Source: a virus (lineage: Duplodnaviria > Caudoviricetes). From it: 52,512 nucleotides of DNA. The position numbers and the translations under genes are program-made. Below are positions 1 through 27,758 of this stretch, piece by piece. Numbering within the stretch: position 1 is the first letter of the stretch; each line of letters opens with the position of its first letter. The notes below the pieces were generated by a model. That model had not been told where the DNA came from and made no database searches. It saw only the letters and a program-made list of their open reading frames with translations. The DNA is taken from IMG/VR virus record IMGVR_UViG_3300021368_000894, positions 1 through 52,512 of that record; one strand, given 5' to 3'.

Positions 1-225
1 GCTTTCTACTTCTAACGTATCAGTAGGTTCCTTATCAATAACAACTGGTCTATGTGGAGCAAGGTAGAAACTACCAAGCACATCGCCACCAGCATTCTTG
101 TGAATAATCAAGTGAGCGTTACCACCATTATGGTTATGCTGACAGAGAATTCTTTCACCAGAGTCAATGTTATCTGGTGTTGTGGAAAGTTGGGTTACTT
201 GACCCAAGAGTTTGATTACGTTCAT
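1..225 (-). CDS. Hypothetical phage protein, 3'-truncated by the window edge (not in the ORF track)
   Basis: Manual translation from the ATG at 225 gives MNVIKLLGQVTQLSTTPDNIDSGERILCQHNHNGGNAHLIIHKNAGGDVLGSFYLAPHRPVVIDKEPTDTLEVES, open to base 1. Its start overlaps the upstream stop as ATGA. Confidence 0.8.
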   Translation of the reverse strand, partial: MNVIKLLGQVTQLSTTPDNIDSGERILCQHNHNGGNAHLIIHKNAGGDVLGSFYLAPHRPVVIDKEPTDTLEVES

Positions 226-668
226 CCTATTACGGTAACGGGGGAAGCATAGACATAACCAGTGCCAGCAGTTTGGTTTGGTGCCAATCTTATCTGGATA
301 GTTTCTCCACCAGATTTTGGTTGATCCAGATAAGTTGGAATATTGGGATCGTCATAATCAGTAGAAGTAGATTCTTTTCTGATGTAGATAGTCTCGCCTG
401 CAGCAATAATAACATCATGATAGTTAAAGGTCTCTACATTATTCTGCTGGAAAATACTAAATGGTTCTCCAGTAGCAGGATTAAGAGCCTGAACTACAAC
501 TACTCTGGCACAAACAGGTTTGTCTGATTGATTGTCAATCTTAACTACACTTGCTCGAAGGATTTCTTTTCCATTTAACATTCCTCCTCCATTACCAGAA
601 GGATATCCTGCATCAATATCTGTAGCAGAATCCAACGAAGTAATTTTACCAATTGGTGTGACTAGCAT
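222..668 (-). CDS. Hypothetical phage protein downstream of the terminase small subunit
   Basis: 148-aa ORF with a TAATG overlap with the gp16 stop. GGAG and an ATAAATA motif lie just upstream. Confidence 0.8.
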   Translation of the reverse strand: MLVTPIGKITSLDSATDIDAGYPSGNGGGMLNGKEILRASVVKIDNQSDKPVCARVVVVQALNPATGEPFSIFQQNNVETFNYHDVIIAAGETIYIRKESTSTDYDDPNIPTYLDQPKSGGETIQIRLAPNQTAGTGYVYASPVTVIG

Positions 669-1087
669 TACTCTCCTGATTCTTCACTTTTATTTATTTG
701 TTTCAGCATTTTCTGGAGGTCTGCTGTGCTACCAACAAATAGATTATTAGTAGTATTATTAGTCTCCCTCTTGGTAGGTGCCTCAAGGTTCTTCATCTTC
801 TGCTGAAGATCGATGAGTTTGTCAGTAGCGTCTGCAACCTGCTTCATGGCGTTCACAGCGACTTCATACGCTCTAGGGTGCCCAGACTCCTGTGCTACCT
901 CTAGCGCCCCGTCTAGCGCCTCCTGACCCTTGCTGAGCAATGAGTATAATTGACCACGGGTAAACTCGTAGTCTTTTGTCTGATCGTCCTTCTCTTCTTT
1001 AGGAGGTTTAGGTTTTGATGGTTCAATGTCAGTCGATTCAACTTCGATATCGAAAATGTCTTCCATGTTATCTTCAAACTTGCTCAT
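668..1087 (-). CDS. gp16: Terminase small subunit (T4 gp16-like)
   Basis: Motifs DYEFTRGQLYSL, ESGHPRAYEV and NNLFVGSTADLQKML; follows gp15. Confidence 0.95.
   Translation of the reverse strand: MSKFEDNMEDIFDIEVESTDIEPSKPKPPKEEKDDQTKDYEFTRGQLYSLLSKGQEALDGALEVAQESGHPRAYEVAVNAMKQVADATDKLIDLQQKMKNLEAPTKRETNNTTNNLFVGSTADLQKMLKQINKSEESGE
691..697 (-). promoter_or_regulatory. Putative T4-type late promoter (ATAAATA)
   Basis: The motif is inside the gp16 3' end, about 23 nt before the next ATG. It could be chance in AT-rich coding sequence. Confidence 0.45.
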
Positions 1088-3628: not shown

Positions 3629-3641
3629 GGAAGTCTAAAAG

Positions 3642-4250
3642 TCAAGTAGATAACTGTTTAATCATTACTCTACATGTGTCAGCTATAGTTACTGCGGCTC
3701 CAGTAACTGTGCTAAGTCTTCTCATTGTAAATCTAAAATCATCGCCACTAGTAAAACTTTCAATTGTATGAAGGTTATATGCAGTTTCTTCAGCGCCACT
3801 GCTGCGACGGATATATCCATCTTCAATTCTAGCTAGTAATGTTCCACTATCTGAGTTTAGACGCATATCTAGTTGACCCGTATATCTATAGTTACTTCCT
3901 GCAGTGCCTCTAAGACAAAACTCAATATTAACTTCATACACTCCTGTTTCGTTTATCGTATAAATGCCACCACTTTCTGAGTAGATAGAATCATTAAAAG
4001 ATGATGCAACATCAATATTACTAATTCTACTAGCAGTGGTGCTGTTAAAGTTTTCATTACCAGTAGGATCTTTATAGATAGCAACTTTCATTGCAGATGA
4101 TCCACCACTAGGAGCATCAACCCAGCTTGTCCCAGTTGCAGTAGAACTTAATAGTTGACCAGAGGTTCCTACATCACCAGAACTATCCGTTAGAGTCCCA
4201 TCTACTTGAAGACTCCCATATACTCTACTTCCACCTTTTAACTTTGCCAT
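3642..4250 (-). CDS. Short fibre with a C-terminal C1q/TNF-like head domain
   Basis: Fibre linker GTSGQLLSSTATGTSW, then YTINETGVYEVNIEF and FTSGDDFRF. Aligns by eye with the three ORFs at 15374-16955. Confidence 0.65.
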   Translation of the reverse strand: MAKLKGGSRVYGSLQVDGTLTDSSGDVGTSGQLLSSTATGTSWVDAPSGGSSAMKVAIYKDPTGNENFNSTTASRISNIDVASSFNDSIYSESGGIYTINETGVYEVNIEFCLRGTAGSNYRYTGQLDMRLNSDSGTLLARIEDGYIRRSSGAEETAYNLHTIESFTSGDDFRFTMRRLSTVTGAAVTIADTCRVMIKQLST

Positions 4251-4269
4251 CAGTATCTTAGTTTTTTAC

Positions 4270-4276
4270 TATTTAT
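4270..4276 (-). promoter_or_regulatory. T4-type late promoter (ATAAATA)
   Basis: In the 27-nt intergenic gap, 20 nt upstream of the ATG at 4250. Confidence 0.7.
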
Positions 4277-4277
4277 T

Positions 4278-11300: not shown

Positions 11301-11584
11301 GGAACGTATCTTAAACTCGTATCAGTTCTGAGGTTTTCATCTCCAGTTGTAGCATCAACAAAAGTGATGTAATGAAACCCAGATGCACTATTTGTAGCAG
11401 TTAGAGATACAGTCTCTGCATTAGCACCAACATCTACAATACTTTCCGTTCCGTCAACATTTTTCTTGATGAATACTTTTCCATCATACGTATTGATCGC
11501 TACTTCTCCCAACGCCAACTGTGTAGTTGTGGGAACTGAATTAGCCGTAGCAGATCTACGTAATTTAATTGTTGGGGCTGCCAT
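8321..11584 (-). CDS. Fibre protein with Mtd_N-like N-terminus and internal repeats
   Basis: N-terminal IKLRRS...P...L.LGEVAIN..DGKVFI; GNLTVNGTT motif; DTTPQLGG and DLQIYHD each twice; Ser/Thr/Ala-rich. Confidence 0.8.
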   Translation of the reverse strand: MAAPTIKLRRSATANSVPTTTQLALGEVAINTYDGKVFIKKNVDGTESIVDVGANAETVSLTATNSASGFHYITFVDATTGDENLRTDTSLRYVPSTGEFNIPNVTATSATLGSISASGDATITGSLTAGGLSYPTTNGTSGYVLTSDGSGNVTWSSVTASEATLAQNIDVHENNNTNESVYLVFVDGSTGSQRPEVDTGLTYNPSTNVLSTTASVASTVDLGNTASDDTCFLTFVRDSGGDRQIFTNSNNLLYDSVTNTISANLTGTASNATDADKVDLGNNATDTTCFPLFVRDTTGTQQIFTNSANYTYDASTNTISANTSGIAANATKAELVYLGNNATDSSCFLTFVRATSGAQRINTNSSNLLYDASTNTISANLTGTASVASTVDLGNTASDTTCFLTFVKDSGGDRQIFTNSSSLLYNASTNKISANLAGTADIASVASTVDLGNNASDTTCFPVFVRTATGDEQIFTNSANYTYNASTNTLSANTSGNAATASALATNATGTNLTLSGNLTVNGTTVTLNTTTLDVSDLNITVASGAADSAAADGAGLTVDGASATFNYSHSGTKWVSNKDIEAEAFIKNGGTSSQFLKADGSVDSSTYLTSYTETNDLSSAVTWANVPDANITESSVTQHQAALSITESQISDLQTYLTSYTETNDLSSAVTWANVPNANITESSVTQHQAALSITESQISDLQTYLTSYTETDPVVAAINGIVKSNGTTISAAVAGTDYLTPTGDGSGLSGISSDVVNDTTPQLGGDLNTNSNVIEFPDSSGEMVNRAHFGDGRDLQIYHDGSSSYIDNSTGNLLTRVPAGNLFAIQQTGGTENIALFNADGACELYHNNVQTLITTISGVTVTGALTATSIVKSGGTSSQFLMADGSVSTGGGGGISNVVEDTTPQLGGTLDTNGNLIQFGDSSSATDDRLQFGASQDLQIYHDAAGATNQITTATGQDLKIFTQGTGQVWIQSDTPTLVFDDVTGGIQDNMSMSWNGSVFTMSETTNSDTLFTATKDGSVDLYHNNSKKLETTTSGATVTGTLTATADVTVKGAVRCENSASTERFEILYNETDDSLDFVYNAS
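8915..9818. repeat. Pair of 43-nt direct repeats (8915-8957 and 9776-9818)
   Basis: 41 of 43 positions are identical. Both encode GGTSSQFLxADGSV and they are 861 nt apart (in frame). Confidence 0.85.
9447..9754. repeat. Intragenic tandem duplication with a 147-nt (49-aa) period
   Basis: GTTTCTGTATAAGA recurs at 9447, 9594 and 9741. The two full protein units differ by one residue (D/N). Confidence 0.9.
10100..10950. repeat. Five intragenic repeats of 165-174 nt (VDLGN..D.TCF..FVR..G..QIFTNS....Y...TN.ISAN)
   Basis: GTTTCCTAA anchors near 10226, 10400, 10565, 10739 and 10913; the repeats are visible in both DNA and protein. Confidence 0.9.
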
Positions 11585-11601
11585 GGTGATACCTATCTAG
11601 G

Positions 11602-11835
11602 TTAAAACTCACCACCATCCTTAACTGTATCTACAGTTTTCTTACGAGTAGATGGTGATTTTTTTGAAGCGTTATCTAACGCTTTTTGTAACTCGGAAAC
11701 ATTATCTAATGTTTCCTGTAATTTTTTTTCATGACACTTAATACGTGCCTCCAAAGCAACAATCTGGCTGAGTTGTGTTGACAATTTTTCAGTCATCACC
11801 TCAACCAGAGTTGCGTAATCTACTTGAACATCCAT
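11602..11835 (-). CDS. Small coiled-coil protein ending in DGGEF
   Basis: 77-aa ORF with heptad-like LSQIVALEARIK...LQETLDNVSELQKAL, filling the gap between two fibre genes. Confidence 0.75.
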   Translation of the reverse strand: MDVQVDYATLVEVMTEKLSTQLSQIVALEARIKCHEKKLQETLDNVSELQKALDNASKKSPSTRKKTVDTVKDGGEF

Positions 11836-11855
11836 AATAAAAATACAATATCAAT

Positions 11856-11862
11856 TATTTAT
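11856..11862 (-). promoter_or_regulatory. T4-type late promoter (ATAAATA) fused to the upstream TGA stop
   Basis: The minus strand reads TGA-TAAATA, about 21 nt before the ATG at 11835. Confidence 0.7.
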
Positions 11863-13427
11863 CAATAGGTTCCAGCATCAACTACTAGGTTCTGGAGGTA
11901 TCTTCCAGCGGTTGCACCATCAGGAGCATCACCAGCAGCAAGGTAACTAATAACTGCTTCGTTAGTTCCGGCAGTGTCTGTTACATTATAAGCAAGTGAT
12001 AAGAATGCAACTGGTGTTGGAGCAGCATCACTGCCACTACCAGCAATAGCAGTAGTACCAGCAACGAATAAATCCGCTCCTTCGTCATAACCAATGAATA
12101 CATTGTCTAATGAACCACGATTAACAATCAGACCAGAATCTGAAGTAGGAGCAGTGCTACCACCAAGTCCCTGTTGCAGTTCAAGGATAGCATCTGTGAC
12201 TGTCGTATTTGTTGTATTGACAGTAGTAGTTGTTCCATTAACTGTTAGGTTACCTTGGATCGTAACAGTAGATCCATTATCAGAAATAGAACTATTTACA
12301 AGTTGATCAGTAGACCACTTAAGAACTGCATTGTCTGTCAAGTTAGCAGCGTTCTTAAATGCTACGCTATCGGCAGCAACTGCAATACCATCTCCAGCAC
12401 CAACATTCAAACCTACAGTTTGACCTTCGCTTGCGGTTCCAGTCTTGGTAAGACCATTTCCTGCGGTTACATCCTCAACATAGTTACCATTAGTATCAGT
12501 GCTAAGATCAATAGGTCCAAGAGTAATTTCTTGACCAGAGATGCTTAGATAATCATGTGATGTATCATCAAGAGTTACATTAGTAGAATTATCTGTTCCT
12601 GCTGCATCAACACCTAAAGTTCCTCTAGCAGTAGCAGCATCTGCATCATCAATTAGAGATCTACCAAAAGCACTGATGGCAGTAGTAGCAGCACTAGTAG
12701 CAGAATCAAAGTATGGGAATGTATTTGCTGCTTGAGTTAATCCAGCAAGATCAGCAAGAATAGCATTCTGTGCTTGAACGTCTGTGCCGATAGTTAATCC
12801 GAGAGATGCTCTAGCAGTTGCTCCAGATTCTAGAACAAAGTTTGATCCATTACCAACAATGAATCCGCCATCAGTTGTCGATAAACCAGCAACATCAGCA
12901 ACAGTTCCTGTTCCAGCGATAGAGATAGCATCACCGTTTGTAGTGACAGTAACAGCGACTCCACTACCTCCAGAAGCAGTAAGTGTTTCACCATTAGAAA
13001 GAGTAGTGGTATTAGAACCATCTGAAATGGTCCAACCCGTATAACCACTTTCCTGGGTTACCCAAGACAAGTTGCCATTAGTATCTGACTGGAGAATCCT
13101 ATTTCCTCCAGGAGCATCTGGCCAAGTATATGTAGAATCGTTAGCAGTATCTGCAACCTTAAAGGTAACAGATCCACCACCACTACCATCAGTTCTGGAT
13201 AGAATTACAACTTCTCCAGATGCTGTAGCAGTAGCAGCTACCAGTGATTCATCGACACGAGCGGTAAAAGAACTACCACCAATAGTAACAAAAGAAGCAG
13301 ACCCATCTGCGATGTAAAGAACACCTGCGGTAGTATCTACAAAAGGTTCACCAATTAATGCATTATTAATACTTGCTGCGGAAGGAGACTGAGTTCCCCT
13401 TCTTAGTCTTAATCTTGGTGCTGCCAT
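11862..13427 (-). CDS. Fibre protein with Mtd_N-like N-terminus, ending in DAGTY
   Basis: MAAPRLRLRRG...GEP..D...LYI; ARASLGL.IGTDVQA and GRSLIDDADAATARGTLG fibre motifs; GNLTVNGTTTTVNTT. Confidence 0.8.
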   Translation of the reverse strand: MAAPRLRLRRGTQSPSAASINNALIGEPFVDTTAGVLYIADGSASFVTIGGSSFTARVDESLVAATATASGEVVILSRTDGSGGGSVTFKVADTANDSTYTWPDAPGGNRILQSDTNGNLSWVTQESGYTGWTISDGSNTTTLSNGETLTASGGSGVAVTVTTNGDAISIAGTGTVADVAGLSTTDGGFIVGNGSNFVLESGATARASLGLTIGTDVQAQNAILADLAGLTQAANTFPYFDSATSAATTAISAFGRSLIDDADAATARGTLGVDAAGTDNSTNVTLDDTSHDYLSISGQEITLGPIDLSTDTNGNYVEDVTAGNGLTKTGTASEGQTVGLNVGAGDGIAVAADSVAFKNAANLTDNAVLKWSTDQLVNSSISDNGSTVTIQGNLTVNGTTTTVNTTNTTVTDAILELQQGLGGSTAPTSDSGLIVNRGSLDNVFIGYDEGADLFVAGTTAIAGSGSDAAPTPVAFLSLAYNVTDTAGTNEAVISYLAAGDAPDGATAGRYLQNLVVDAGTY

Positions 13428-14819: not shown

Positions 14820-14826
14820 TATTTAG
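14820..14826 (-). promoter_or_regulatory. T4-type late promoter (CTAAATA) overlapping the upstream TAA stop
   Basis: The stop at 14823-14825 is the TAA of TAAATA, about 23 nt before the ATG at 14797. Confidence 0.7.
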
Positions 14827-15377
14827 TAATTCCAGAATTGATATGCCATACTATATCTTGGCGTATCTACCGTAGTACCACTACCAGAATGAAGAACATC
14901 TCCTGGAATAATTAAAAGTCTTCCAGGCATAGGAGAAATTAAATCTGTTTTCATTTCTCCTGGTACTCTATTTGGCGAGAAAAATATTTTTGTTTCTCCT
15001 CCCCATTCAGGTTTCCATTTTGTGTTGGGGTATATAATAAAAGTCCAACAACCTTCAACTAAAGAATCTGTGTGTGGAAGAGGTTTGTCGTCTTTTTCAA
15101 AACAATTATACAACACTCTATCAAATTTTTCAACTTTTGGTATCTCAAGAAAATCTAACTCTAATATTTTATTGAGATACTTTTTTTCTATAGATGCAAA
15201 ATCTTTTTCTAAAACATGAAACCCTTTGGAAGATGGTTGTTTGAAGTTTGATTCTTGAACATCATCAAACATAATCCATTCAATCGATTGAATGTGATTA
15301 GTTAACTCTTCTATTTCTGTTTCTGTTAAAAAATTATCAATCACCCAGCAATCTGGTCTAACAATCTTTAGTATCAT
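14823..15377 (-). CDS. 2OG-Fe(II) oxygenase (prolyl 4-hydroxylase-like)
   Basis: IDNFLT, HxD (PHTD), W..EWGGET, P.PGRLLI, distal His (VLHSG) and RxS (PRYS). Confidence 0.9.
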   Translation of the reverse strand: MILKIVRPDCWVIDNFLTETEIEELTNHIQSIEWIMFDDVQESNFKQPSSKGFHVLEKDFASIEKKYLNKILELDFLEIPKVEKFDRVLYNCFEKDDKPLPHTDSLVEGCWTFIIYPNTKWKPEWGGETKIFFSPNRVPGEMKTDLISPMPGRLLIIPGDVLHSGSGTTVDTPRYSMAYQFWNY

Positions 15378-15904
15378 GGAGAAGCAATTTTAATAATAGT
15401 AATTACACCTGATGGAGCAGTAATAGTTCCAGTATTTCCTAATTGAGATCCTCTAAGTCTTAATGTAGAATTAGATCCAACCTGAAACAAAGCAGTTCCT
15501 GTATCACTACTAAAATTGTGGGTTCCGCCTTGCTGTGCTCCACCACCTCTACTATAGTTTGATTGATATCTGAAGGGTTGAATACTTCCATTAATATCCC
15601 ACTGGAAACCAGCATTGGTTCTAACTCCACCAGTAAGTCTACAATTAAAAGAACATTGATATGTTCCTTCATCAGCAATAGTGATGGTAGTTCCATTAGT
15701 CAAAGATGTGATACCACCAGGATCAAATACAAGTGCCAAACCATCAACATAGTTAGTAGTATTTAAATTAGTTCCACTACCAAAACTATATTTTGCTGCT
15801 AGTGTGTAAGCAGCACTTCCTGGTCTAATATCTTCTCCCGCGTAATTTTCAACAGCTGTTGCTGCTTTAATTACATCTACATGTAGTTTACCTGTTCCTG
15901 GCAT
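15374..15904 (-). CDS. C1q/TNF-like domain protein, paralog 3
   Basis: TITIADEGTYQCSFN motif. The start is moved to the ATG at 15904 (TAATG coupling, GGAGG upstream), giving 176 aa, in line with the paralogs. Confidence 0.7.
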   Translation of the reverse strand: MPGTGKLHVDVIKAATAVENYAGEDIRPGSAAYTLAAKYSFGSGTNLNTTNYVDGLALVFDPGGITSLTNGTTITIADEGTYQCSFNCRLTGGVRTNAGFQWDINGSIQPFRYQSNYSRGGGAQQGGTHNFSSDTGTALFQVGSNSTLRLRGSQLGNTGTITAPSGVITIIKIASP

Positions 15905-16428
15905 TATGCAATCCTCCAAAGTGTGATGTAACTATCTCCAGCAATGATAGTTGTATTTTGTCCTGCCGCTCCTGCTTGACCAAATTCCATTGCAACTGTA
16001 TCTCCAGCATTTAAATTGTAAGCAGTTACCAATTCAGTGCTTGCTTCATTATGACCACTTGCTACTCTAATATACGAAGATCTAGATTCTTCAAACTGAC
16101 CGCTAGAATTAATACGAAATCTAAATCTAGGAGAATCACGAGCTGCTGAATTATTATATGCCGTACTAGCCATCACAATATACATTCCTGAAATAGGAAT
16201 GGTAATAAATGTAGCGTCATTAGACCAAGCACCAGTTTCCGACTGATTAATGATTGGAGATGTATTAAACACTGTTCTCAAAGTAAATCCAGCTGTGTCA
16301 TTTGGATTTGGATTTGCAGTCAAGTTTGTTTGATACATCGCTGTAGAATTATAACCAGTAGATACTGATCCAGTACCTTCTTTGGTTACAGTGTTTGCTT
16401 TAATTGTTGTTACTGTTAAAGATCCCAT
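15904..16428 (-). CDS. C1q/TNF-like domain protein, paralog 2
   Basis: FITIPISGMYIVMAS and LNAGDTV motifs; terminal strand YITLWRIA. Confidence 0.75.
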   Translation of the reverse strand: MGSLTVTTIKANTVTKEGTGSVSTGYNSTAMYQTNLTANPNPNDTAGFTLRTVFNTSPIINQSETGAWSNDATFITIPISGMYIVMASTAYNNSAARDSPRFRFRINSSGQFEESRSSYIRVASGHNEASTELVTAYNLNAGDTVAMEFGQAGAAGQNTTIIAGDSYITLWRIA

Positions 16429-16430
16429 TA

Positions 16431-16955
16431 TTATTCTGCAATTTTGTAAACTAATGCGTGACTAAAATCTAGCAATGTACAATCATTGCCATTGAATCCT
16501 GTGCCATGATAGAACTGCAATCTTAAAGTAGAACCTTGATTAAGCTGATACATAGTTGCTAATGATGTAGATGCTGTGTACTGACCGCTAGCATCTCTAC
16601 AATAAGAACCTCTAGCTTCTTCTGGTTGAGCAGATCCATCAACAACCCATCGATGCCAAACAGTCCAACGATATGAACTATCTTGGGTAGTACTCTCAAT
16701 ATATCCTACATTAGCATAGCAATAATAGATTCCATCTTCTGGAACAGTGATTTCAGAAGTAGAAACAGTAAAACCACCCTGATTAATAACAGTAGAATTG
16801 AACACATTTTTTTGTGTCCAATTAGTTCCGCCATTAGTCATGTTAGTCCCAGCAGGTCCTAATCTAACTTTGACGAGGGGGATAACTGATGATCCCCCTC
16901 CTTGTGGTGGTTCTACCGAGTTATAAAGTAACTCGTCGCATTCAATAGCACTCAT
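16431..16955 (-). CDS. C1q/TNF-like domain protein, paralog 1
   Basis: EITVPEDGIYYCYANV and LNQGSTLRL motifs; terminal strand ALVYKIAE. Confidence 0.75.
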   Translation of the reverse strand: MSAIECDELLYNSVEPPQGGGSSVIPLVKVRLGPAGTNMTNGGTNWTQKNVFNSTVINQGGFTVSTSEITVPEDGIYYCYANVGYIESTTQDSSYRWTVWHRWVVDGSAQPEEARGSYCRDASGQYTASTSLATMYQLNQGSTLRLQFYHGTGFNGNDCTLLDFSHALVYKIAE

Positions 16956-16979
16956 TGCTTTTGTATAGACTCCTCATTC

Positions 16980-16986
16980 TATTTAT
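16980..16986 (-). promoter_or_regulatory. T4-type late promoter (ATAAATA) fused to the upstream TGA stop
   Basis: TGA-TAAATA then GAGGAG, about 25 nt before the ATG at 16955. Confidence 0.75.
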
Positions 16987-19900
16987 CAAAGTATCTGCCA
17001 GATGCCATTGACGATTACTGTATTTCCACTAGCGATAACAACGTCTCCTGTAGAGAATGCATTAGTTCCTGCAGGAACAGTTACATTTTCAGAAATAGTA
17101 GATCCTGAAGCCTTGATAATACCCTGACTATCTAACCATTGAGCACTTCCATTAGCTTGTAATCCAGACTTAGCATTAATAACACCAGTAACATCAGCAC
17201 CGCCAGTAGTGATAGTTAGAGCACCTTCAAGTCTAGATGTACCTTGAACACGAAGGCGACCAGATTCACCATTATCAGTGAAGTCCTCGCCAACATCAAG
17301 AGTATATGCTGGTGTTGTTTCACCAATACCAACTCTGGAGTTTCTGTAGATATTAGTTCCATTTTCAGTCCAACGTGAGGTGACAAACTCACTATCATTC
17401 TGATAGAGAATACCAGAGAAGTTGACATCACCAGCAACGTTTAGAGAATACTGAGTAGTGCCATTTACAAATGCAGAAGTACCAATTCCAATCTGATCAT
17501 TACCGATGAAAGTATTACCACCATGAGGATTAGCATGATGTGGAGTTCCGCTATAGACTCTAAAGTTACGGCAAGAAAGAACATTACTTGCTGTTCCATT
17601 AATAGCAGTACCACCAGAATTGGTAACCGTCATTGCAAATACAATGGTATCACCTGGATTTAGATTGGTGATAGCAGCAGAGAAGTTTCTGTACGCAGTT
17701 GCATTAGCAGCATTACCATCCAGATAAGTAACTGAATTGTAATCATCTGTAATTACAGGTGTTCCATTAACACTAATTCTATATCCATAGAATCCAGAGT
17801 TAGTTTTAGTGGACCACTTAATTCTAAGATCACCAGTCTTCTCAGCAACAAATGTATTTACATCGTAGTAATTTGAGTTGCCATTATTATTTGCTGTCTC
17901 AATTTCTCTATCGTTAAAGAATACCAGATAAGCATCCTGATCACTGTAACTAATAGCAGAAGCATTTTCTGTGTGTACTTGACCATTAACAGATAACTTA
18001 TATGGAATGTTTAATGGAGACTGACCGATACCAACATTTCCAGAACCTGTTTCAATGTCTCCACCAGCTCTTAGTAGTAGAGAAGTTGAGAGACCAGTGA
18101 TATCAGCATCTGCTCCGCTACCAGCAGCACCATTGAAATACAAATCAGCAAGAGATGTTGTCGCTGGATTATTGGTGCCATAATCAGATGGTGCTCTAAA
18201 GATGTTCCAGGTATAAGCATATCCACCATTCTGGAAAGCAATACCTTGTTCGTGTTCGTTAGTACCAGTTCTGATAGTTAAAGCACTACGGAAATCATTG
18301 CCAGTAGTGAATACATTCAACTTACCATTTTGAGATGGTGTTGCTGAAGGTGATGTGCCTACAAGTACGTTACCGTTTGCTTGATCAGCATAGATCAAGT
18401 TATTACTAGAATCAACTCTAAAGGTTCCTTCAACATCTAGTGAATCAGTAACATCAACATCCCCATTGACTGTTAGCAATCTAGTAGTAGCATTACCAAT
18501 AGTTAAGTCGCCATCAAGTGTTCCACCTGTAATTGGTAGGTTACCAGTTGCAGCACCATCTAGAGTTGCTGTAATAGTACCCGCAGCGAAGTCGCCATTA
18601 GAATCTCTGGCAACCAATTTACCATTAGCATTAGTATCATATCCTACAGGATTATTGCCATCAAGACCATCATCAAATAGTAAATTAGCAGCGTTGAATA
18701 CTACGTTATTATTGACTGTAAATGAATCATTATTAACAACTTCAACATCTAGAGTTCCTCCTCCATTGCTTCCGTTACCTCCAGATGCAATGATACGAGA
18801 ATCATATGTAACAGATGTAGAACCAGATCTGAACTCTACAGATGGTGTTGTACCACCAGAAGGATCATCTTTTCTACCAAGAGTTAACTTGCCATCTTCT
18901 AGTTTAGCACCTTCATAAACAGTTTGAGTGGTTTCATTATTAGGAGGAAGGATGATTCTATAATCAGCAAATGGTGGTCTATTAGAAGCACTACCAATAG
19001 TTAATGCGCCAGTAAATCCTCCATTAGTAATGTAACCAATGATAATACTATAGTCACCGGATGTATCTTCAGCAGATGCAGGGTTTGGTGGTACAGGTAT
19101 CTCATCATTTGTGATGATGTTTGTAATCTGGAAAGAACCTACCGCGTTTGAAGTCGAATCGTAAAGGTTAACTACCTGGAAAGAACCATTATCAATAAAT
19201 GGTAATCCTGTCAGCAATTGACCAGGAACATAAACTTCATAATATTCAAAGTTGTTGATCTTTCTAATGGTAAGGGAATCCTTTACATTAGTTTCATCTA
19301 GGTATTCTGGGATTCTGTTGGTAGATAGAATACCAAAATTAATATTGTAAGCAGTTTGATACCACTTGCCTTGCTTGTTATCAAGTTTGTCGGCATCAAG
19401 ACCAGTGTCTACGCCATCGTTTAGAGATGTCCAAACTTTATACCAACTACCAAAATTATTTGCAGGTGTAGTACCAGAACCACGAATCCATAGATTATTG
19501 TTATCAGTAAATGCTAACTGTCTTACACCACCATAAGTAGCGTCAGTTCCACTAGCACCATTTCTTGCAGTTAGTACCAAGTGACGGATACCACCATCAT
19601 CTAGTCCATCAGCAGAATTATTTTTAGTTTCTGCTTTGAAACCAGCTGGGAATTGAGATGGGTTAGAAGAAGAACTTAATGCACCTACATCTGTGTTCAA
19701 TCTCAAGGTATTACCAGAGGAACCAGAAATATTAATATTATAAGTACCAGACAATCTATCTGTTGCTAATAGACCTGCTGAGAGGTTACTAGCGTTTGTA
19801 TAGTATGTTCCTTGGAATCCGTCAAGCAAGTCAGCATTGAGGTTACTTCCATCACCAGTCTTGAGTTCTACAGAACCATTACCATCAAGTCCAACATTAA

Positions 19901-22900
19901 ATTGCGACTTCTTAAATCTAGAAACACCAACTGTGCCATAAAGATCCTGAGAGATAGTCTGCTCAGTTACTCTCTTAACATCAATAGTTGTGTTAGCATA
20001 GTTTCTAGTTACTTCACCAACTTTTGCCAAAAGAACGGCATTAGAACCTGCTCCCAATTGAGGTGGTAGTGAGGTTACTGTGAAATCTCCAGTAGTATAT
20101 CCACTACCACCGTCAGTTACAACAATGGTAGTAATATTTCCGGTTCCATTAACAGTGATGTTCGCTTTTAGACCAGAACCATTTCCACCAGTAAGTGGAG
20201 TGTCATTATATGTTCCAGGTGTGTATCCAGTGCCCTGATTAGATAGGATGATATTATCAACAAAAGCGCCGATAGTAAATGTTGATTCTAATACAAGAGG
20301 AGAACTTCCTCTTTCAAACTCAATTACTGTTCCAGAAGGGATTTCTTGAGTTAAAGTCTTATCAAGAGAGATTTCTGTAGTTCCAGCAGAAGTAACTACA
20401 TTAGTAATTAATGTATCTGCTTGGATACCAGAAACATTATTAATTACCTCATGACCTTTAAGTACATCTGAGTTAGTTGCGAAAGATAATGTACTAGAGT
20501 TAATAGCACCAGTAGCACTAGTAATAGCAAAGTATCTTGTTTCTGCTCCCTTCAGTGATTGCATGACGGGAGCGAACGCTTGGTCTCCACGTAAGAATGT
20601 AAACGAGTTAGCAGCAGCTGAGTTTTGTGCTAGTCTCGATGTGGAGATAATTCCAGATGTAATATCAGAAGCAGCAATCTGGTTAGAGGATAGTGCTACC
20701 CAGTTAGCAGCGTTAGTAGAAGAGGTATTATATACTCTAGTTAGATTGACAGTAGCACCATTGTCATCATCGATGAAGTCAGTATCCTCCATCTTAACTG
20801 CGTTAACAATGTTACCATACAATCTACTTTCAATTAGAGCAGTTGCAGTTGCTTGAGTTCCACCGCCACCAGGAGCATCAATAGTAATATTTGGATTAGC
20901 GGTATATCCTAAACCTCCAACATAACCATTGAATAGATTAATAGTCAGAGAAATAACGGAACCATTAGCAACAGTTGCGGTTACATCTGCTGCTTGAGTT
21001 GGTGTTCCTCCATCAGAAGGAGTTACAGTTACAGTTGGTGTTGATACATATCCAGAACCACCTGCTGTAATGTTTACTTTGTAAACTACACCTGCTCTAT
21101 ATTCTGTTGCCTGAATCTGAGATCCAGAACCACCTAAAGATCCACCAGAATCTCTAGAAACATACACGTCATTGACGGTGAATGCTAGAGCAGGGTTTTC
21201 ATTAAATGCTAAGAACTGACTTTCAGTATCATCATTAAGAATGAATGATTGTGATGTATCATTCTGAATAACAATGTCACCTGCAAGAGCACCACTATCT
21301 CCATAGATTGTATTTTCGCTAATTCTTGCTGCTTGATCTGCTACAGTGTAAACACTGAAAGGTCTTAGTGCAGGAATCTGATCTAGAGAAATCTTACCAG
21401 AATCAGTAAGTTCAACTAGTGCTCTAGGAACAGCGTTCGTAGAGTATGGTTTGTTGATGTAAGGTCCAAGGTTGTTAGTGATGAAGTCCTTAACCGCCTT
21501 CTGAGTTGGGATCTTACTATCAGAAGAAGTAGCGCCACCGAGTGTATTGGATGCGTCGAAACCAGTAACAACAACGTCGCCACCCTTCAGTTTCAAGAAC
21601 TCAACTTCCGAGATGGTAACCGTACCTGTGAAGGTGATAGCACCAGTTCTGTTCTCAATCTTAGCGAAAGTACCAACCTTAAAGTCACCCAGTTCGTCAG
21701 TACCAGAAACATATACACGACCGTAGTCTTCCGATACTTGCTCATTGGCATCAACCTTAACGCCACCATTCTCGGGTAGAGCATTATAGTTTGTACCAGA
21801 ACCTGCAAACTCCCAAGTGTGAGAAGAAGAGTTAACGATAGAAGGTCTGTGTAGAGAAACTTTAGGATTACCTCCATAGTTTGCTACATTGTAAGCAACT
21901 AAGTCTGTACTTAGAACAACTTGATTGGTAGCTTCATCAATTAGTTCTAAAGCATCTCCTGTTCCATTATCAAGTGTTAATGCAGAATTGAATGGAGGTC
22001 CTACAGTTCCACCAGTTAGAGATTCGATGAAGTATTCATCATCCGGGTCGGCGTTTCTATAACCATCAACTTTTACAATATAATCTTCTAGAGGTCTTCT
22101 TCCAAGATTCTCTACATTAATAATAGTTCTTCCTGTAACTGTGTTGGAGACCGAAGCAATGGTAGCGCGGATATAAGTACCACCACCTGTTGTATAACCT
22201 TGATCAAACTCATATGCATCTTTTCTGAATCCTCTTGCCCTTAGAGCAAACGTACCAAAGTTTGTAGCAGAGTTGGTGATAGATGCGTAACCACCAGATT
22301 CAGAAAGGACGCCATTTTCAGCAAAGATGACGAAGACAGAAACTAACTGGGTATAACCATCATTGGTAACCTTATATCCTGTACCACCAAATGTGATAAT
22401 AGTAAAGGCAGCAGCAACCATTGACTTACCCTGGTTGGGGAAAGATGCTGTTCCATCAAGTTCCAGACCAGGGAAAGGTGAGTTAGGTTGAGCAACCTTA
22501 TCTCCGTCGATCTCAGCACCGCCACCACCTAGGAAGGAGATAACAGAAGCGTTCTGAGTATATGGTGATGCCTCAATGATGGGCAGATCATCATATGTAG
22601 TGGTTGGAGTAATTAACTTATTATCTTGATCATACAGATAATTATTTGGTCTGCTTAGAATATTAGTTGTGTCAAATAATGTTCCATATGTACGTGTTGT
22701 TGCACCAGGAAGAATAGTTCCATCTAAAATCTGCTCAAGCAAGAGCATGGAAGTATTAATTGTAGTAGCAACATTGTTGCACATTGGTTGATCACCAGTT
22801 GTGTAAATGGCGATCGAGTTGTTTTGAGTTCTTACAAAAGTGTGAGCAGACTGTGGAAGGTGCTTGACACTATTAGAAGTTGCACTAACAAACGTATGTG

Positions 22901-25900
22901 GAGATTGTGGAAGATGTCTTACAGCATCTGCAGTAGCAGTAAGAAGTGTCGCGTAACCAACAATTCCAGAAGTAATGTTAACAGTAATCTGACCATTTTG
23001 TCTCTTGACTCCGTTAGCAGTTGCACTAACAAAAGTGTGTGCTCCTGTATATGCAGATGATCCTACCTCGATATCAAAAGTGTTTGTAGTTACGTTTTTA
23101 ATAGGTAACCAGCGACCACTTGGATAATCATATCCAGCACGAGGATATGATTTGTTGATTGGAGAAGACTCTCCTTCTGGTTGACATGAGAATGTCAATG
23201 AAGAATCATCTACTTTAATATAATCACCTTCAGTAAAGTTGTGAGAAGCAATAGTTAATGTTACGACACCGATCATAGCGTCATAAACAGCATTAGTCAC
23301 GGTGTGATCAGAAGAACCAACACTTGTGATAGATAGAGACTGTCCAGAGAAAGAATCTACTCCAGGACGTGGTAGAAGTCCACCATCAAATGTTAGTGAG
23401 TTGTCTGTTAGAATGACTCCACGACCAACACCCAGTCCATGCTGACCAATATCAAGAACTAAATCGCCAGATCCAGAATCGTAACTACCAGATGTTGGTT
23501 GGAAGTCTACATTATCAGCAGACTTGCCTGCATTAATTGTAATTGTGGTATCAGTAACTGCTGAGATAGGAATAGATCTACCAGCAAATGGATCAATTCC
23601 TGGACGTGGATAAGTCTTGGTAGACTGGTTGCCGTCCATGTCGCAAGTAAACGACAAGGAGTTGTCGTCAAGTACAATACCCGCACCAATGTATAGACTA
23701 TGTGTTCCAATAGTTAGCGTTAGTTCTCCAGAAGCAGGATCATATGTAGCAGCGGTAGGAGTAAATTGTACATCCGCCGCAGATGCTCCTACATTTACAC
23801 GAAGCGTATTTGCATCTACTACTGTTACTGGCAGATCGCTATCAAATGCTGTTTGACCAGCGCCTGGGAGGTAGTGTTCAGTCTTGTTGCTATCCATAGC
23901 ACAAGTGAACGTAAATGACTGAGGAGCAATTCTCATCGAGTTGCCACTTCCAGTCAATCCATGACCAGTTACAGTAACATCAAAGTTACCTGTAGCAGGA
24001 TCGTATGTAGCATTAGAAGGAGTGAATAGTTCTTCTAGATCCGCATTAACATCAGGGAGAATATTCCAATCCTCAAATCTAGATGCAGTGAAAGGACTAT
24101 CTAGATCAATTTCTTCTGGGACAATAAACGTTCCATTTGCTAATGCAGAAGCAAAGGTATGTGCTACACCAGCAGCAGTTCCAGCATCACCAACGTTTAC
24201 AGTGATAAGAGTATTAGCACCGGAAGTAGATACAGCAGTAATTAAAGTGCTCTTACCATAATTACGGTCTGTTGGAGTTGGACTTGCATGAGTTCCAGCA
24301 CCGCCACCAGGATCGCATGTAAATGTGAGAGCACCTTCTTTAAATGCAACTCTATCTCTGTTTTCTACAGGAACAAACGTCAGTCCCGATGTTGTTACAG
24401 TAAGAACTACATCTCCAGTTGTTGAATCGTATGTAGCAGTGGATGGAGTAACCTGGAAGTAGTTTCCATTTGTCCAGTTACGCATCGCTTGACGAGCGTA
24501 CTTACGTGCTTGTCTGAAAGCATAGATAGTTGCTCCTAACTGTGCTTCAGGAACTCCTGTAAGTGCTTGTCCGGTATAATAGTTCTCAGCAGCATTAACA
24601 ATGCCTCCATTTCCACCCAGAGCGAGATCTCTAACTAAACCAGATAGAACTAGTTCAATATCTCTCTTGCACTTGTATGCTCTGTCTGTGGATAGTTTAA
24701 GAGCAGGATAGAAAGAAATTGCATCTCTATATGATTGATCAGCAATTAGAGTTTTGTTTCTAGCAATTAGATAAGCAGCATCTAGATATGTTCCATTAGT
24801 ATTGTTAGCAAGGATATCATTAAATAAGAAGACAAGAGTGTTGATGGATGCCTCTACATCAGCACAGACTGGAGTGCCAGCAGTTGTGCTAATTACAGTT
24901 GGATCTTTATATCTACTTAGAGCAGAATACTCTGGTACATACTCTGGATTATCAGAAGTTCCATCTCCTGTAATCCAATTTCTCATAGCAAGAATAATCA
25001 ACTGTCTAGCATATTCAAATGCTCTTACAGTTTGAATAATCTCATTATCTACATAATCAACTCTAGCTCCAGCGATATAATAATTTGCTGCTTCAATAAC
25101 ATGAGCATTAGATCCATACTCAAGATCCATTAGAATCGCATTTACAAAGTGACCTACATCTCTATAGCACTTAGAATCTCCACCAGGGATATTGAATCCA
25201 GGATAAATCTTCTGACCCTGAGAACATGAAATTACAATATCTTCGATTTTAACAACTTTACCATCTTTCAGTCCGGGGATTCCTGCAGTGGTAACAGTTC
25301 CAATACCTGTAGTATTATCATATACAAATCCAGTTACAGAATACTCAGTTCCTTCAAATGTTACTGTTCCTCCAGAAACATAAGTATGAACGAAATCATT
25401 TGGATTAGTTCTTACTTGGAAAGTGTTTAGAGAAGTATCAACACCTTCTACAGCAAAATGCTTTTTAGCAAACTGATCATTTAGTTTTAGAACAACTTCA
25501 TCTTTGATGAACTCAATATTATTTCTGATTAGATTGCAAGCATCTTGATATCTTCTAGAAACATATGCTGCTCTAGAAAACTTGTTTGGAGAGTTGAGCA
25601 AAGATAATGTCATGTAAGACATTACAGACTTTACTTCAACAACTCCTGTTGGTTGGTAATTATCTGTAGTGAGAACTGTAGTCTTTTTAGGAATAACAAA
25701 TCTTCTGGATCTGCCATCAGCATCTCTCAAGATTTTATAGATTCTCTGCTTACCATTAAGGAAAGAAAGATCTGGTCCAGAAGTTGGCAAACCAGTGATT
25801 TCAATTTCTTGACCTTCTTTGAAATCATGTACATTTGATCTTCCTACGAGATCATTTGTATAGAAAATGATACCACCTAGATCTTCTGCATTACCTTCTA

Positions 25901-27758
25901 CTTCAGAACCAAAACCACCTTGAGCAGCTTCTGCAGTGCCTTGTTTGGAGAAGTCAATTCTTGTAATTGGTAGAGTAGTAGAATAATCTGTTCCTGTCTC
26001 TACAACTTCACCTTCAGCACGAATTGATTTGATATCTGTAGAAACAAACTCATAAGCATCTCTCAGATACGTAAGTTCTGCTGTTCCATTATTTACTGCT
26101 CCAGAAGTATGAGTTGGAATTGACGTTCCTGTAGTACCGCTAGCAGTGACAGTATATACGTTACCAATCGCCCATAAAAGTTGACCTGATGTTACAGCAG
26201 TTTCTTCAATAAACTTAAGTGTTCCATCGCCACCATATTGGAAAGTTTCACCTGTACTAAAGGTTCCATTTGTGATATCAACAGAAGCTTTACCATTAAT
26301 ATATGCATTCTGTCCAGTCGTCTCGTCAAATGATAATTCAAATAGTTGACCTGTCGCACCAGTGTTAACACCTCTAACAGGAAGTCCGTTAACTAAGTTA
26401 GCAAGACCAGTATTAGTTTGGAATGTTACTTCAATTCTTGGTGGACCAAAGATTTGGTGACCGATAGGTAATGTCCTACCAAAACCTCCACCAGATTCTT
26501 TGTCAAAGTATATTCTCTGCTTATCATCAAACACCATGGCAAAATCCCAGGTTGCCACAGGATCGCCATTGGAATCAATCTGGTCACGGAATGTGATGCC
26601 AGTTAAATAGTTTTTATCTCCAAACTTAAATACGTGCTTTCTAGCGTTTTGTGGTCTTACAATAACCAAACGTAGGTTATCACCAACAATAGAACAATCA
26701 GGTGGAATAGAAACTGGGTTGTCTTCTACATAGTCTCCACCAGAAATAATGACAGTTTCTTTTACACCAGGAGTAGACCAAGCAATCTGACATGCTCTCT
26801 TGATTGTTCTAACTGGGTTAACAGCAGAACGACCATCATTTAAATCATCACCAATTTGCTGAGAAACATAGATACGACCACCAACGTCATTCGTTGCTAG
26901 GTTGAGGACGTATTCTGTAGTTGCAATCTTGTCTGATCTATCTCCCAATTTGGGAGTAATAGATCTTGGGAAAATACCAGCTTCTCCTGTTTCTGCAAAG
27001 TATGGTTGGTTTTGATCGTTTACCCTAAAACCAATATGCTTTAGTTGAGCATCACCATTTGCTTCAATACCATCAACATGATCTGGTGGCGTATTACTGG
27101 TGAGACCTGCAGTAGTTACTTGATATACATTAGTCTCGTGATATCTATAATCACCTACCTGGACAATAGTGCTTTGTGCCCAAGGTGTTCCAGTATTGTT
27201 CTGGAAAGTTTTTAGATTAGGAGCTCTAAAAGCAGCGTCAGCAGTTACAAAGTTATCAATATCAAGGTTGAGGATACGAGCAGTATCTGAAATAATTGAA
27301 GTAGATGTTCTTACAGCACCATTAACATCTAGTTCAAATAAAACTTCATCCAGGAAAGCTTCAGCAGCAACACCTACGCCGCCTCCGCCATCAAAAGTTA
27401 CGGTAGGAGCAGTTTCATAACCATCACCGGGATTATCTACAACAATTGCAGTTACAGAACCATTAACAATAGCAGCGGATGCCTGAGCTTGAACAAAAGG
27501 TGCTCTAGTAGGAGGACTGAGTTCTACCGTAGGTGGTAAAGTATATCCATTACCTGCTGAAAGGAGAGTAATTTTCTCAACCCTTCTGCCAGTTCTATTA
27601 ATACCTACTCTAGGTAATGCTGTTTCAGATAATTGAGCTCTAAAAATCTCTCTTTCTTGAGCACCAGCGCCAGTTCTAATAGTAAATTCGGATGATCCGT
27701 AAATAGATGGATTTACGCCCGAGATTCTTTCGCTATCCGAGTTAAACTTAAAGCTCAT
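16986..27758 (-). CDS. Giant virion structural / tail fibre protein (3590 aa)
   Basis: G.GY..P.V beta modules; GRIYVS...G.D.NDG.S...PVRTIKRA; two KCxRD helical units; ATYDP.TG modules; LDADKLD and VGIG fibre motifs; C-terminal TISENVTVPAG...WQIL. Confidence 0.85.
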   Translation of the reverse strand: MSFKFNSDSERISGVNPSIYGSSEFTIRTGAGAQEREIFRAQLSETALPRVGINRTGRRVEKITLLSAGNGYTLPPTVELSPPTRAPFVQAQASAAIVNGSVTAIVVDNPGDGYETAPTVTFDGGGGVGVAAEAFLDEVLFELDVNGAVRTSTSIISDTARILNLDIDNFVTADAAFRAPNLKTFQNNTGTPWAQSTIVQVGDYRYHETNVYQVTTAGLTSNTPPDHVDGIEANGDAQLKHIGFRVNDQNQPYFAETGEAGIFPRSITPKLGDRSDKIATTEYVLNLATNDVGGRIYVSQQIGDDLNDGRSAVNPVRTIKRACQIAWSTPGVKETVIISGGDYVEDNPVSIPPDCSIVGDNLRLVIVRPQNARKHVFKFGDKNYLTGITFRDQIDSNGDPVATWDFAMVFDDKQRIYFDKESGGGFGRTLPIGHQIFGPPRIEVTFQTNTGLANLVNGLPVRGVNTGATGQLFELSFDETTGQNAYINGKASVDITNGTFSTGETFQYGGDGTLKFIEETAVTSGQLLWAIGNVYTVTASGTTGTSIPTHTSGAVNNGTAELTYLRDAYEFVSTDIKSIRAEGEVVETGTDYSTTLPITRIDFSKQGTAEAAQGGFGSEVEGNAEDLGGIIFYTNDLVGRSNVHDFKEGQEIEITGLPTSGPDLSFLNGKQRIYKILRDADGRSRRFVIPKKTTVLTTDNYQPTGVVEVKSVMSYMTLSLLNSPNKFSRAAYVSRRYQDACNLIRNNIEFIKDEVVLKLNDQFAKKHFAVEGVDTSLNTFQVRTNPNDFVHTYVSGGTVTFEGTEYSVTGFVYDNTTGIGTVTTAGIPGLKDGKVVKIEDIVISCSQGQKIYPGFNIPGGDSKCYRDVGHFVNAILMDLEYGSNAHVIEAANYYIAGARVDYVDNEIIQTVRAFEYARQLIILAMRNWITGDGTSDNPEYVPEYSALSRYKDPTVISTTAGTPVCADVEASINTLVFLFNDILANNTNGTYLDAAYLIARNKTLIADQSYRDAISFYPALKLSTDRAYKCKRDIELVLSGLVRDLALGGNGGIVNAAENYYTGQALTGVPEAQLGATIYAFRQARKYARQAMRNWTNGNYFQVTPSTATYDSTTGDVVLTVTTSGLTFVPVENRDRVAFKEGALTFTCDPGGGAGTHASPTPTDRNYGKSTLITAVSTSGANTLITVNVGDAGTAAGVAHTFASALANGTFIVPEEIDLDSPFTASRFEDWNILPDVNADLEELFTPSNATYDPATGNFDVTVTGHGLTGSGNSMRIAPQSFTFTCAMDSNKTEHYLPGAGQTAFDSDLPVTVVDANTLRVNVGASAADVQFTPTAATYDPASGELTLTIGTHSLYIGAGIVLDDNSLSFTCDMDGNQSTKTYPRPGIDPFAGRSIPISAVTDTTITINAGKSADNVDFQPTSGSYDSGSGDLVLDIGQHGLGVGRGVILTDNSLTFDGGLLPRPGVDSFSGQSLSITSVGSSDHTVTNAVYDAMIGVVTLTIASHNFTEGDYIKVDDSSLTFSCQPEGESSPINKSYPRAGYDYPSGRWLPIKNVTTNTFDIEVGSSAYTGAHTFVSATANGVKRQNGQITVNITSGIVGYATLLTATADAVRHLPQSPHTFVSATSNSVKHLPQSAHTFVRTQNNSIAIYTTGDQPMCNNVATTINTSMLLLEQILDGTILPGATTRTYGTLFDTTNILSRPNNYLYDQDNKLITPTTTYDDLPIIEASPYTQNASVISFLGGGGAEIDGDKVAQPNSPFPGLELDGTASFPNQGKSMVAAAFTIITFGGTGYKVTNDGYTQLVSVFVIFAENGVLSESGGYASITNSATNFGTFALRARGFRKDAYEFDQGYTTGGGTYIRATIASVSNTVTGRTIINVENLGRRPLEDYIVKVDGYRNADPDDEYFIESLTGGTVGPPFNSALTLDNGTGDALELIDEATNQVVLSTDLVAYNVANYGGNPKVSLHRPSIVNSSSHTWEFAGSGTNYNALPENGGVKVDANEQVSEDYGRVYVSGTDELGDFKVGTFAKIENRTGAITFTGTVTISEVEFLKLKGGDVVVTGFDASNTLGGATSSDSKIPTQKAVKDFITNNLGPYINKPYSTNAVPRALVELTDSGKISLDQIPALRPFSVYTVADQAARISENTIYGDSGALAGDIVIQNDTSQSFILNDDTESQFLAFNENPALAFTVNDVYVSRDSGGSLGGSGSQIQATEYRAGVVYKVNITAGGSGYVSTPTVTVTPSDGGTPTQAADVTATVANGSVISLTINLFNGYVGGLGYTANPNITIDAPGGGGTQATATALIESRLYGNIVNAVKMEDTDFIDDDNGATVNLTRVYNTSSTNAANWVALSSNQIAASDITSGIISTSRLAQNSAAANSFTFLRGDQAFAPVMQSLKGAETRYFAITSATGAINSSTLSFATNSDVLKGHEVINNVSGIQADTLITNVVTSAGTTEISLDKTLTQEIPSGTVIEFERGSSPLVLESTFTIGAFVDNIILSNQGTGYTPGTYNDTPLTGGNGSGLKANITVNGTGNITTIVVTDGGSGYTTGDFTVTSLPPQLGAGSNAVLLAKVGEVTRNYANTTIDVKRVTEQTISQDLYGTVGVSRFKKSQFNVGLDGNGSVELKTGDGSNLNADLLDGFQGTYYTNASNLSAGLLATDRLSGTYNINISGSSGNTLRLNTDVGALSSSSNPSQFPAGFKAETKNNSADGLDDGGIRHLVLTARNGASGTDATYGGVRQLAFTDNNNLWIRGSGTTPANNFGSWYKVWTSLNDGVDTGLDADKLDNKQGKWYQTAYNINFGILSTNRIPEYLDETNVKDSLTIRKINNFEYYEVYVPGQLLTGLPFIDNGSFQVVNLYDSTSNAVGSFQITNIITNDEIPVPPNPASAEDTSGDYSIIIGYITNGGFTGALTIGSASNRPPFADYRIILPPNNETTQTVYEGAKLEDGKLTLGRKDDPSGGTTPSVEFRSGSTSVTYDSRIIASGGNGSNGGGTLDVEVVNNDSFTVNNNVVFNAANLLFDDGLDGNNPVGYDTNANGKLVARDSNGDFAAGTITATLDGAATGNLPITGGTLDGDLTIGNATTRLLTVNGDVDVTDSLDVEGTFRVDSSNNLIYADQANGNVLVGTSPSATPSQNGKLNVFTTGNDFRSALTIRTGTNEHEQGIAFQNGGYAYTWNIFRAPSDYGTNNPATTSLADLYFNGAAGSGADADITGLSTSLLLRAGGDIETGSGNVGIGQSPLNIPYKLSVNGQVHTENASAISYSDQDAYLVFFNDREIETANNNGNSNYYDVNTFVAEKTGDLRIKWSTKTNSGFYGYRISVNGTPVITDDYNSVTYLDGNAANATAYRNFSAAITNLNPGDTIVFAMTVTNSGGTAINGTASNVLSCRNFRVYSGTPHHANPHGGNTFIGNDQIGIGTSAFVNGTTQYSLNVAGDVNFSGILYQNDSEFVTSRWTENGTNIYRNSRVGIGETTPAYTLDVGEDFTDNGESGRLRVQGTSRLEGALTITTGGADVTGVINAKSGLQANGSAQWLDSQGIIKASGSTISENVTVPAGTNAFSTGDVVIASGNTVIVNGIWQIL

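Follow-up and report, generated by a model that had tools for sequence, protein, structure and literature searches.

A giant tail-fibre-type protein of a marine cyanomyovirus probably carries an arm of four self-nested beta-barrel modules

The DNA analysed here, referred to as the window, is the 52,512-nucleotide viral record IMGVR_UViG_3300021368_000894, a late structural region of a T4-like marine cyanomyovirus. An open reading frame (ORF) on its minus strand at 16986..27758 encodes a giant protein of 3590 amino acids (aa), which is of tail-fibre type as judged from the ORF list, its translation, a profile match and synteny. Within this protein, nucleotides (nt) 24026-22809 very probably encode four copies of one beta-barrel module of about 105 residues, nested in each other to form an arm. 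Residue i of the protein starts at nt 27758-3(i-1), and the minus-strand frame is the sole long frame at the arm, the remaining ORFs there being of 90 aa or fewer. The protein matches the profile of PHROG 5342, for which 'tail fiber protein' is the annotation name, with an E-value of 0 and 4164.5 bits in five stretches, the best covering aa 1650-3589, while no Pfam family matched the whole protein at E up to 0.1. The segment 22500-24600 matches 49 phage records, all of Synechococcus or Prochlorococcus phages or cyanophages, where the genes are named as structural or tail fibre proteins. The syntenic gene of Synechococcus phage ACG-2014j, of 10.4 kb, is annotated 'tail fiber protein' and is flanked by gp8-type baseplate genes and neck genes.

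All features of the arm lie on the minus strand, and the limits of the modules and closing segments were set by alignment of the repeats. The arm is preceded by M0 (aa 1103-1212, nt 24123..24452; residues 9-118 of the structural model described below), a complete and uninterrupted module of about 110 aa that serves as the internal reference for the whole fold. A linker with a conserved FEDW motif, the EDW of which marks the left flank of the arm, follows at aa 1213-1244 (nt 24027..24122). The linker is predicted to be disordered (predicted local distance difference test, pLDDT, below 50 at model residues 122-143), yet the F-E-D-W motif is present wherever the arm occurs. The opening part, or opener, of M1 (aa 1245-1331, nt 23766..24026) contains the strands up to the one with a VNVG-type sequence and seven further residues, without the last strand. 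The M2 opener (aa 1332-1418, nt 23505..23765) sits between the VNVG strand of M1 and the M1 last strand. The M3 opener (aa 1419-1484, nt 23307..23504), in which a conserved Cys has been lost, stops one strand before the point where M1 and M2 stop. M4 (aa 1485-1585, nt 23004..23306) is complete and forms the innermost module at the far end of the arm. The missing strands then follow in three closing segments, or closers: that of M3 (aa 1586-1615, nt 22914..23003), with a VNVG-type strand, QITVNI, and a degenerate last strand lacking His, that of M2 (aa 1616-1633, nt 22860..22913), a last strand reading PHTFVSA.., and that of M1 (aa 1634-1650, nt 22809..22859), a last strand reading AHTFVRT... 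The right flank is a conserved segment with the motif C..V...I.T.M (aa 1658-1680, nt 22719..22787; pLDDT below 50 at model residues 562-576).

The five modules align across all strands, except that M1 and M2 are without the last strand only and M3 is without the last two. M1 and M2 each end seven residues past the VNVG-type strand and M3 ends one strand sooner. Aligned against M0 and M4, the host openers are thus short of their last one or two strands, and another module begins zero to seven residues on. Translation and repeat alignment reproduce the module starts at 24026, 23765, 23504 and 23306, and the complete module at about 24124-24450, that had been put forward in an earlier sequence-only reading of this DNA. 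The bracket-like order proposed there, in which the modules open 1-2-3-4 and close 4-3-2-1, is also what we find, with three truncated modules, a complete fourth and closers that carry the missing strands in reverse. All three of the closing segments that it had described are present, although the M3 closer has lost its His and ends in a degenerate strand.

The whole protein contains the tripeptide HTF exactly four times, and each occurrence sits where a module closes: in M0, in M4, and in the M2 and M1 closers. At the corresponding position the M3 closer reads ..ATLLTA.. after a three-residue deletion, while all 40 of 40 aligned homologues have H-x-F there. Only M3 is without a VNVG-type strand and only the first closer after M4 supplies one. 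Last-in-first-out pairing is favoured because it joins the module lacking the strand to the closer that bears it, which a parallel order would not. When a hidden Markov model (HMM) is built from the five openers, it recovers all five with E-values of 3e-23 to 1e-39, and it finds no copy in the window's seven further ORFs of 300 aa or more. Identity between the modules is 31-52% in protein sequence, and their DNA is alike over short stretches only, of 60-87% identity and at the level of motifs, so that they are old paralogues rather than a recent duplication or an artefact of assembly. Conservation is even across the four modules and their closers, with a mean major-residue frequency of 0.72-0.79.

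The degenerate M3 closer provides a further link between distant parts of the arm. In 201 distinct full-length cassettes, as we call the arrangement of four openers and four closers, the four Cys columns and the His columns in the last strands of M4, M3 and M2 are invariant save in two rows. These two exceptions are the 3590-aa protein and a 99% identical twin, both of which lack the Cys of M3 as well as the His of the M3 closer. The co-loss joins residues about 145 apart, in the pair predicted by last-in-first-out closure. A test of co-occurrence of the Cys and His across 537 contiguous modules was powerless, the Cys being present in 536 of them. One might speculate that the Cys and the last-strand His together form a metal site.

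A monomer of aa 1095-1670 was modelled with AlphaFold2 from an alignment of 41 rows, comprising the window and 40 cassette stretches from viral-contig loci. The model has a mean pLDDT of 85.2 and a predicted template modelling score (pTM) of 0.66, with low confidence only at the ends and at the linker between M0 and the arm. The closing segments are confidently placed (block pLDDT 84-97). Strands 380-391 and 490-500, both long and unbroken, carry the chain over the boundary between M3 and M4 on the way out and back, the second of them running from the last strand of M4 into the M3 closer. The model was compared with 48,161 chains of the PDB using VIA-align, and pairing was read from the residues at which the alignment begins and ends in each of the 50 matches listed; the closers of M3, M2 and M1 count here as the second, third and fourth. 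Twenty of the 50 span model residues from about 1 to 120-140, corresponding to M0, and eleven span 386-389 to 493-495, corresponding to M4 (best 4p22_B, Z 7.9, and 4hiz_A, Z 7.8). Thirteen join the M2 opener to the third closer (235/236 to 540-544; e.g. 6l2u_B, Z 6.3, 84 residues aligned), two (7nhk_H and 2ok7_A) join M3 to the second closer (322..522), and one (5ogx_A, Z 5.6) joins M1 to the fourth (146..560), with 86 residues aligned over a 98-residue chain range. Of the remainder, two have a root-mean-square deviation (rmsd) above 16 and are junk and one (349..493) is ambiguous. The good matches each align 65-102 residues to one barrel domain, and those joining an opener to a distant closer (146..560, 235..544 and 322..522) align 70-86 residues in spans that are the last-in-first-out pairs. 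Since a single barrel domain is matched across 200-400 residues of chain, the opener and the distant closer lie together in the model. Structure prediction had been suggested as a check on the sequence-only reading, and it bears that reading out, with openers meeting their distant closers at 146..560, 235..540-544 and 322..522 and with M4 closed on itself at 388..493-495.

The module is predicted to fold as a small barrel, for which the best matches are the E1 FCCH domain (Z 7.9), the phi92 endosialidase barrel (Z 7.8) and the FAD-binding barrels of reductases (Z 5-6), scores that fall in the range the tool calls middling. As a family assignment for M4, the E1 FCCH domain, PF16190, was rejected (E 0.074, 13.6 bits against a cut-off of 29.5), and the match to 4p22_B is at the level of the fold only. 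Precomputed Pfam labels on some homologues comprise PF16190 (E1 FCCH), PF13385 (laminin G 3), PF00502 (phycobilisome protein) and PF14240, the first of which agrees with the fold-level likeness of the barrel to FCCH. Foldseek gave only uninformative matches, with template modelling scores of about 0.1, for the whole arm model against the PDB, and against BFVD it matched only other cyanophage structural proteins. These include 'baseplate wedge initiator' (gp7-type) proteins of other cyanophages, with E-values of 1e-22 to 1e-27, such as E3SL21 of Synechococcus phage S-SSM7.

A prediction was made for a relative with a longer arm, L015, in which eight modules were parsed by hand and their eight spans noted before folding. 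The model of this arm (3439-6009 of its locus, plus strand; 857 residues) has a pLDDT of 79.0 and a pTM of 0.49, the inner modules resting on a shallow alignment with block pLDDT of about 46-85. Six of the eight spans were recovered within five residues among the 50 VIA-align matches listed: m6 (423-428 to 528-532) in 30 of the matches, m5 (364-366 to 791-794) in six, m1 (1-6 to 847-849) in five, m2 (88-89 to 828) in four, and m4 (247-250 to 352-353) and m8 (600-604 to 703-704) in two each. The last of these is a permuted module, in which the last strand precedes the first; it is nevertheless matched as one barrel (9fmv_A 604..703 and 8u0i_A 600..704).

The family to which the arm belongs is large, with 768 proteins at E up to 0.001 among 2012 candidates scored, or 460 representatives at 50% identity. 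The cassette is found again in these relatives, as many as six times in a single protein (P0002, with 24 openers), and 133 canonical cassettes were typed as '(([()]))', with all four openers matched to four closers, by an automatic scoring of sequence tokens. P0002 (4764 aa) and P0003 and P0004 (about 5930 aa) each have six cassettes with unrelated stretches of about 140-690 aa between them.

Arms at the same site were delimited by the conserved EDW motif on the left and the C..V...I.T.M segment on the right. With filtered automatic tokens the counts of openers and closers are equal in 35 of 46 such arms (29 at 4/4, five at 7/7 and one at 9/9). Two of the eleven unequal arms are those of the 3590-aa protein and its twin, scored 4/3 because the M3 closer lost its His; split or permuted modules, which the tokens miss, occur in the remaining nine. 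Looser tokens, for which closers inside opener envelopes were kept at a score cut-off of 0, gave equal counts in 14 of 43 distinct arms because of false H-x-F/Y matches inside the openers. The arms measure 435-441 aa (four modules), 753 (seven), 863-865 (eight) and 1176 (about eleven), each added module bringing about 105-110 aa. As an extra opener comes with about 105 residues and not the roughly 85 of an opener alone, opener and closer would have been gained together. The homologues thus vary as expected if each domain is inserted in a loop of the one before, with same-site arms of 4, 7, 8, 9 or about 11 modules. Two arms that are unequal by tokens, those of L015 and P0034, have eight modules and eight last strands each when parsed by hand; four insertion sites are used in these arms, and some of the modules are circularly permuted, one of them in L015. 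The seven-module arm of L032 (3442-5682, plus strand) corresponds to the four-module arm with a three-module sub-arm that interrupts M3 after the VNVG strand and ahead of the last one. For the three added modules the best-scoring types are M2, M3 and M4 (106, 107 and 127 bits), which suggests that a copied inner sub-arm was pasted into M3. P0022 nests to nine levels, by automatic tokens only.

Taken together, the nested topology is established from the sequence and backed by the predicted structure, and the insertion of each domain in a loop of the previous one is supported by the models, by the matched gain and by the behaviour of the closers. M2 would lie in the loop of M1 between the second-last and last strands and M3 in the same loop of M2, while the loop of M3 that receives M4 would be the preceding one. 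Beyond the complete M4 the chain would turn back, giving two missing strands to M3 and then one each to M2 and M1. A single chain would therefore pass out through four barrels and back, with a late strand completing each barrel. The two ends of the arm would meet at the base of M1, and the four barrels would form a rigid excursion tied together by paired out-and-back strands.

Several observations weigh against this interpretation. The pairing is read from the end residues of VIA-align matches with Z scores of 5-8, described by the tool as middling, and the closure of M1 relies on one such match and that of M3 on two. For L015, the spans of m3 and m7 are absent among the 50 matches listed, and one match (4wqm_A, 45..828) fits no single module. 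The co-loss of Cys and His is a single evolutionary event. The automatic tokens, which do not handle split or circularly permuted modules and are useful only for simple cassettes, are in their crude form balanced in only 76 of 267 proteins, or 59 of the 145 with at least 1900 aa. Pairing of typed tokens matched 268 of 349 last-in-first-out, versus 222 first-in-first-out and 218 with shuffled types, and perfect typed signatures were obtained in 8 of 53. Both folds, moreover, are of monomers, and phage fibres are usually trimers.

The last point about the models matters for one alternative, in which the pairing is right and the strands are exchanged between the chains of a trimeric fibre by domain swapping, making the arm a three-chain assembly. 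The homologues are annotated as tail fibre proteins, phage fibres are in general trimers, and the two folds, being single-chain, are blind to swapping. The monomer models nevertheless close every barrel within one chain with high confidence, and the seven-residue and zero-residue junctions of the openers fit tight intrachain hairpins, so that swapping seems improbable. It is very improbable that M1-M3 are self-sufficient shortened barrels, with the closers folding into a small beta domain of their own beyond M4. The closers are indeed alike and adjacent, and equal counts would also be expected if the cassette were always copied whole, as its presence in up to six copies in P0002 might indicate. 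Against this, VIA-align spans join each opener to its distal closer in both the arm and the L015 models, M3 is without a core strand that only its closer supplies, and in arms with seven, eight or nine openers the matching closers are interleaved and not clustered. The closers do not, then, behave as a domain of their own, the outcome that had been named as contradicting the sequence-only reading.

A different kind of alternative accepts the nesting and concerns the place of the arm, which may have a purely structural role and form a thickening, knob or hinge by packing in or alongside the fibre shaft. We regard this as a real though unlikely possibility. The evenness of conservation over modules and closers (0.72-0.79), with an unremarkable far module, fits such packing, and so does the recurrence of the cassette along the chain in relatives like an element of a shaft. 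Nothing speaks directly against it; the out-and-back topology brings the chain ends to one point and would leave the far end free if no other part of the fibre packed onto it. If the nested arm instead projects from the fibre, one might speculate that it determines reach or stiffness, with the barrels perhaps displayed so as to bind weakly to the surface of the host. Per-module conservation does not single out the far module, M4.

The nested topology also suggests how such arms might grow. Any properly nested sub-arm would correspond to a single contiguous stretch of DNA, the two ends of which come together in the folded protein, and copying it in frame into a permissive loop of another barrel would give a longer or branched arm. 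From the relatives, we infer that arms have grown by in-frame copying of contiguous nested sub-arms in this way. There is perhaps an even chance that the principle is more general, and that the fibres and baseplate proteins of marine T4-like cyanophages follow a recursive 'grammar'. One barrel of about 105 residues, with about four permissive loops, would act as both host and guest and tolerate permutation, and sub-arms would be copied to a depth of nine or more to give rigid branched protein trees whose shape is written in the bracket order. The length and branching of the arm at a fixed site would then be a fast-evolving means of tuning reach or host contact. If true, this would go beyond the six-level case of Si3 in RNA polymerase, cited as the extreme in a survey of 2026 (PMC13114784), both in depth and in combinatorial variety.

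Other proteins are known in which a chain leaves and re-enters its domains. The periplasmic adaptors of efflux pumps (MacA, EmrA, ZneB and BesA) run out through a row of domains and back, each domain being built from an early and a late piece. Barrel domains of adaptors are among the VIA-align matches to M0, over discontinuous chain ranges (4tko_B 27..373 and 5nik_D 47..301). The adaptors differ from the arm in having four different folds, a fixed depth and no self-insertion, and in being proteins of the envelope and not of the virion. The T4 tail sheath protein gp18 is likewise a phage structural protein with domains inserted one inside another; it differs in that its layers have unlike folds, its levels are fixed at three to four and it has no repeat family.

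A self-nested build has already been published for cyanobacterial RNA polymerase, and the nearest published analogue of the arm is the Si3 insertion of its beta' subunit (RpoC2). According to the report of its crystal structure, Si3 is a body of 150 A in length with eight copies of the sandwich-barrel hybrid motif (SBHM), four of which are assembled from pieces far apart in the chain (PMC10895346). The survey of 2026 describes Si3 as a six-level recursive insertion (PMC13114784). On these descriptions the two systems share copies of one small beta domain inserted in each other and an elongated rigid body of discontinuous domains. Si3 differs in belonging to a transcription enzyme and not to a virion fibre, and the phage relatives nest deeper, to nine levels in P0022 by automatic tokens. 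We find no sequence link between the arm and SBHM or Si3: no Pfam family passed its cut-off in searches at E up to 10 with M0, M4 and the cassette, and the sole match in a profile search of the PDB at E up to 1 was an unrelated carbonic anhydrase chain. No RNA polymerase chain is among the 50 matches listed in the VIA-align search of either the arm or L015, which leaves room for an unlisted match or a shared fold.

In the RTX adhesins of Aeromonas (AhLap) and its relatives, an interrupted host domain buds a guest that is held off the axis of a long surface fibre, and in one reported case a bud carries a further bud (PMC12077191). According to the same text, host and guest there are unlike folds (an immunoglobulin-like host with a carbohydrate-binding module, RTX or vWFA guest) at one or two levels, whereas in the phage arm one fold would take both roles over four levels. 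In the phi92 endosialidase, which is also a phage host-recognition protein, the barrel at residues 256-341 of 4hiz_A is one of the two best matches to a contiguous module in the models of both the arm (Z 7.8, rmsd 2.4, 83 residues aligned) and L015 (Z 8.2, rmsd 2.2, 80 residues aligned). The identity is 13-15% with no Pfam hit, and the Z scores are middling and tied with those of E1 FCCH (4p22_B, Z 7.9 and 8.1) and the FAD-binding barrels of reductases. A barrel shape shared with the endosialidase would thus prove neither common descent nor sugar binding. No description of self-nested barrels in virions or phage fibres was found in the literature searched, subscription journals and supplements, which may hold one, lying outside the search.

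Nesting of one domain in another is usually shallow and between unlike folds; here one fold appears to nest in itself four deep, and apparently nine deep in relatives, in proteins that decide how abundant viruses of the ocean meet their hosts. Should an experimental structure confirm the arrangement, it would provide a natural and evolvable route to rigid protein rods and trees from a single module and would account for giant genes that defeat ordinary domain annotation, no Pfam family being found. The depth of the brackets at a fixed site would become a readable marker for the evolution of cyanophage fibres and for host range, and the depth in relatives would exceed the six-level extreme of the 2026 survey (PMC13114784).

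Some further features of the window and its relatives may be mentioned. Upstream of M0 in the same protein, aa ~778-854 (25197-25427, minus strand) look like a circularly permuted copy of the module, with an NTFQVRT VNVG-type strand and an H-T-Y last strand, followed by the Y-D-x-x-T-G opening part, a Cys and Y-P-G; the automatic tokens score it as a stray closer. The large ORF at 43112-52510 contains no copy of the module by HMM. In ACG-2014j, three small 'tail fiber protein' genes (11463-13229 of locus L154, compared with 14823-16986 of the window) lie directly downstream of the giant gene.

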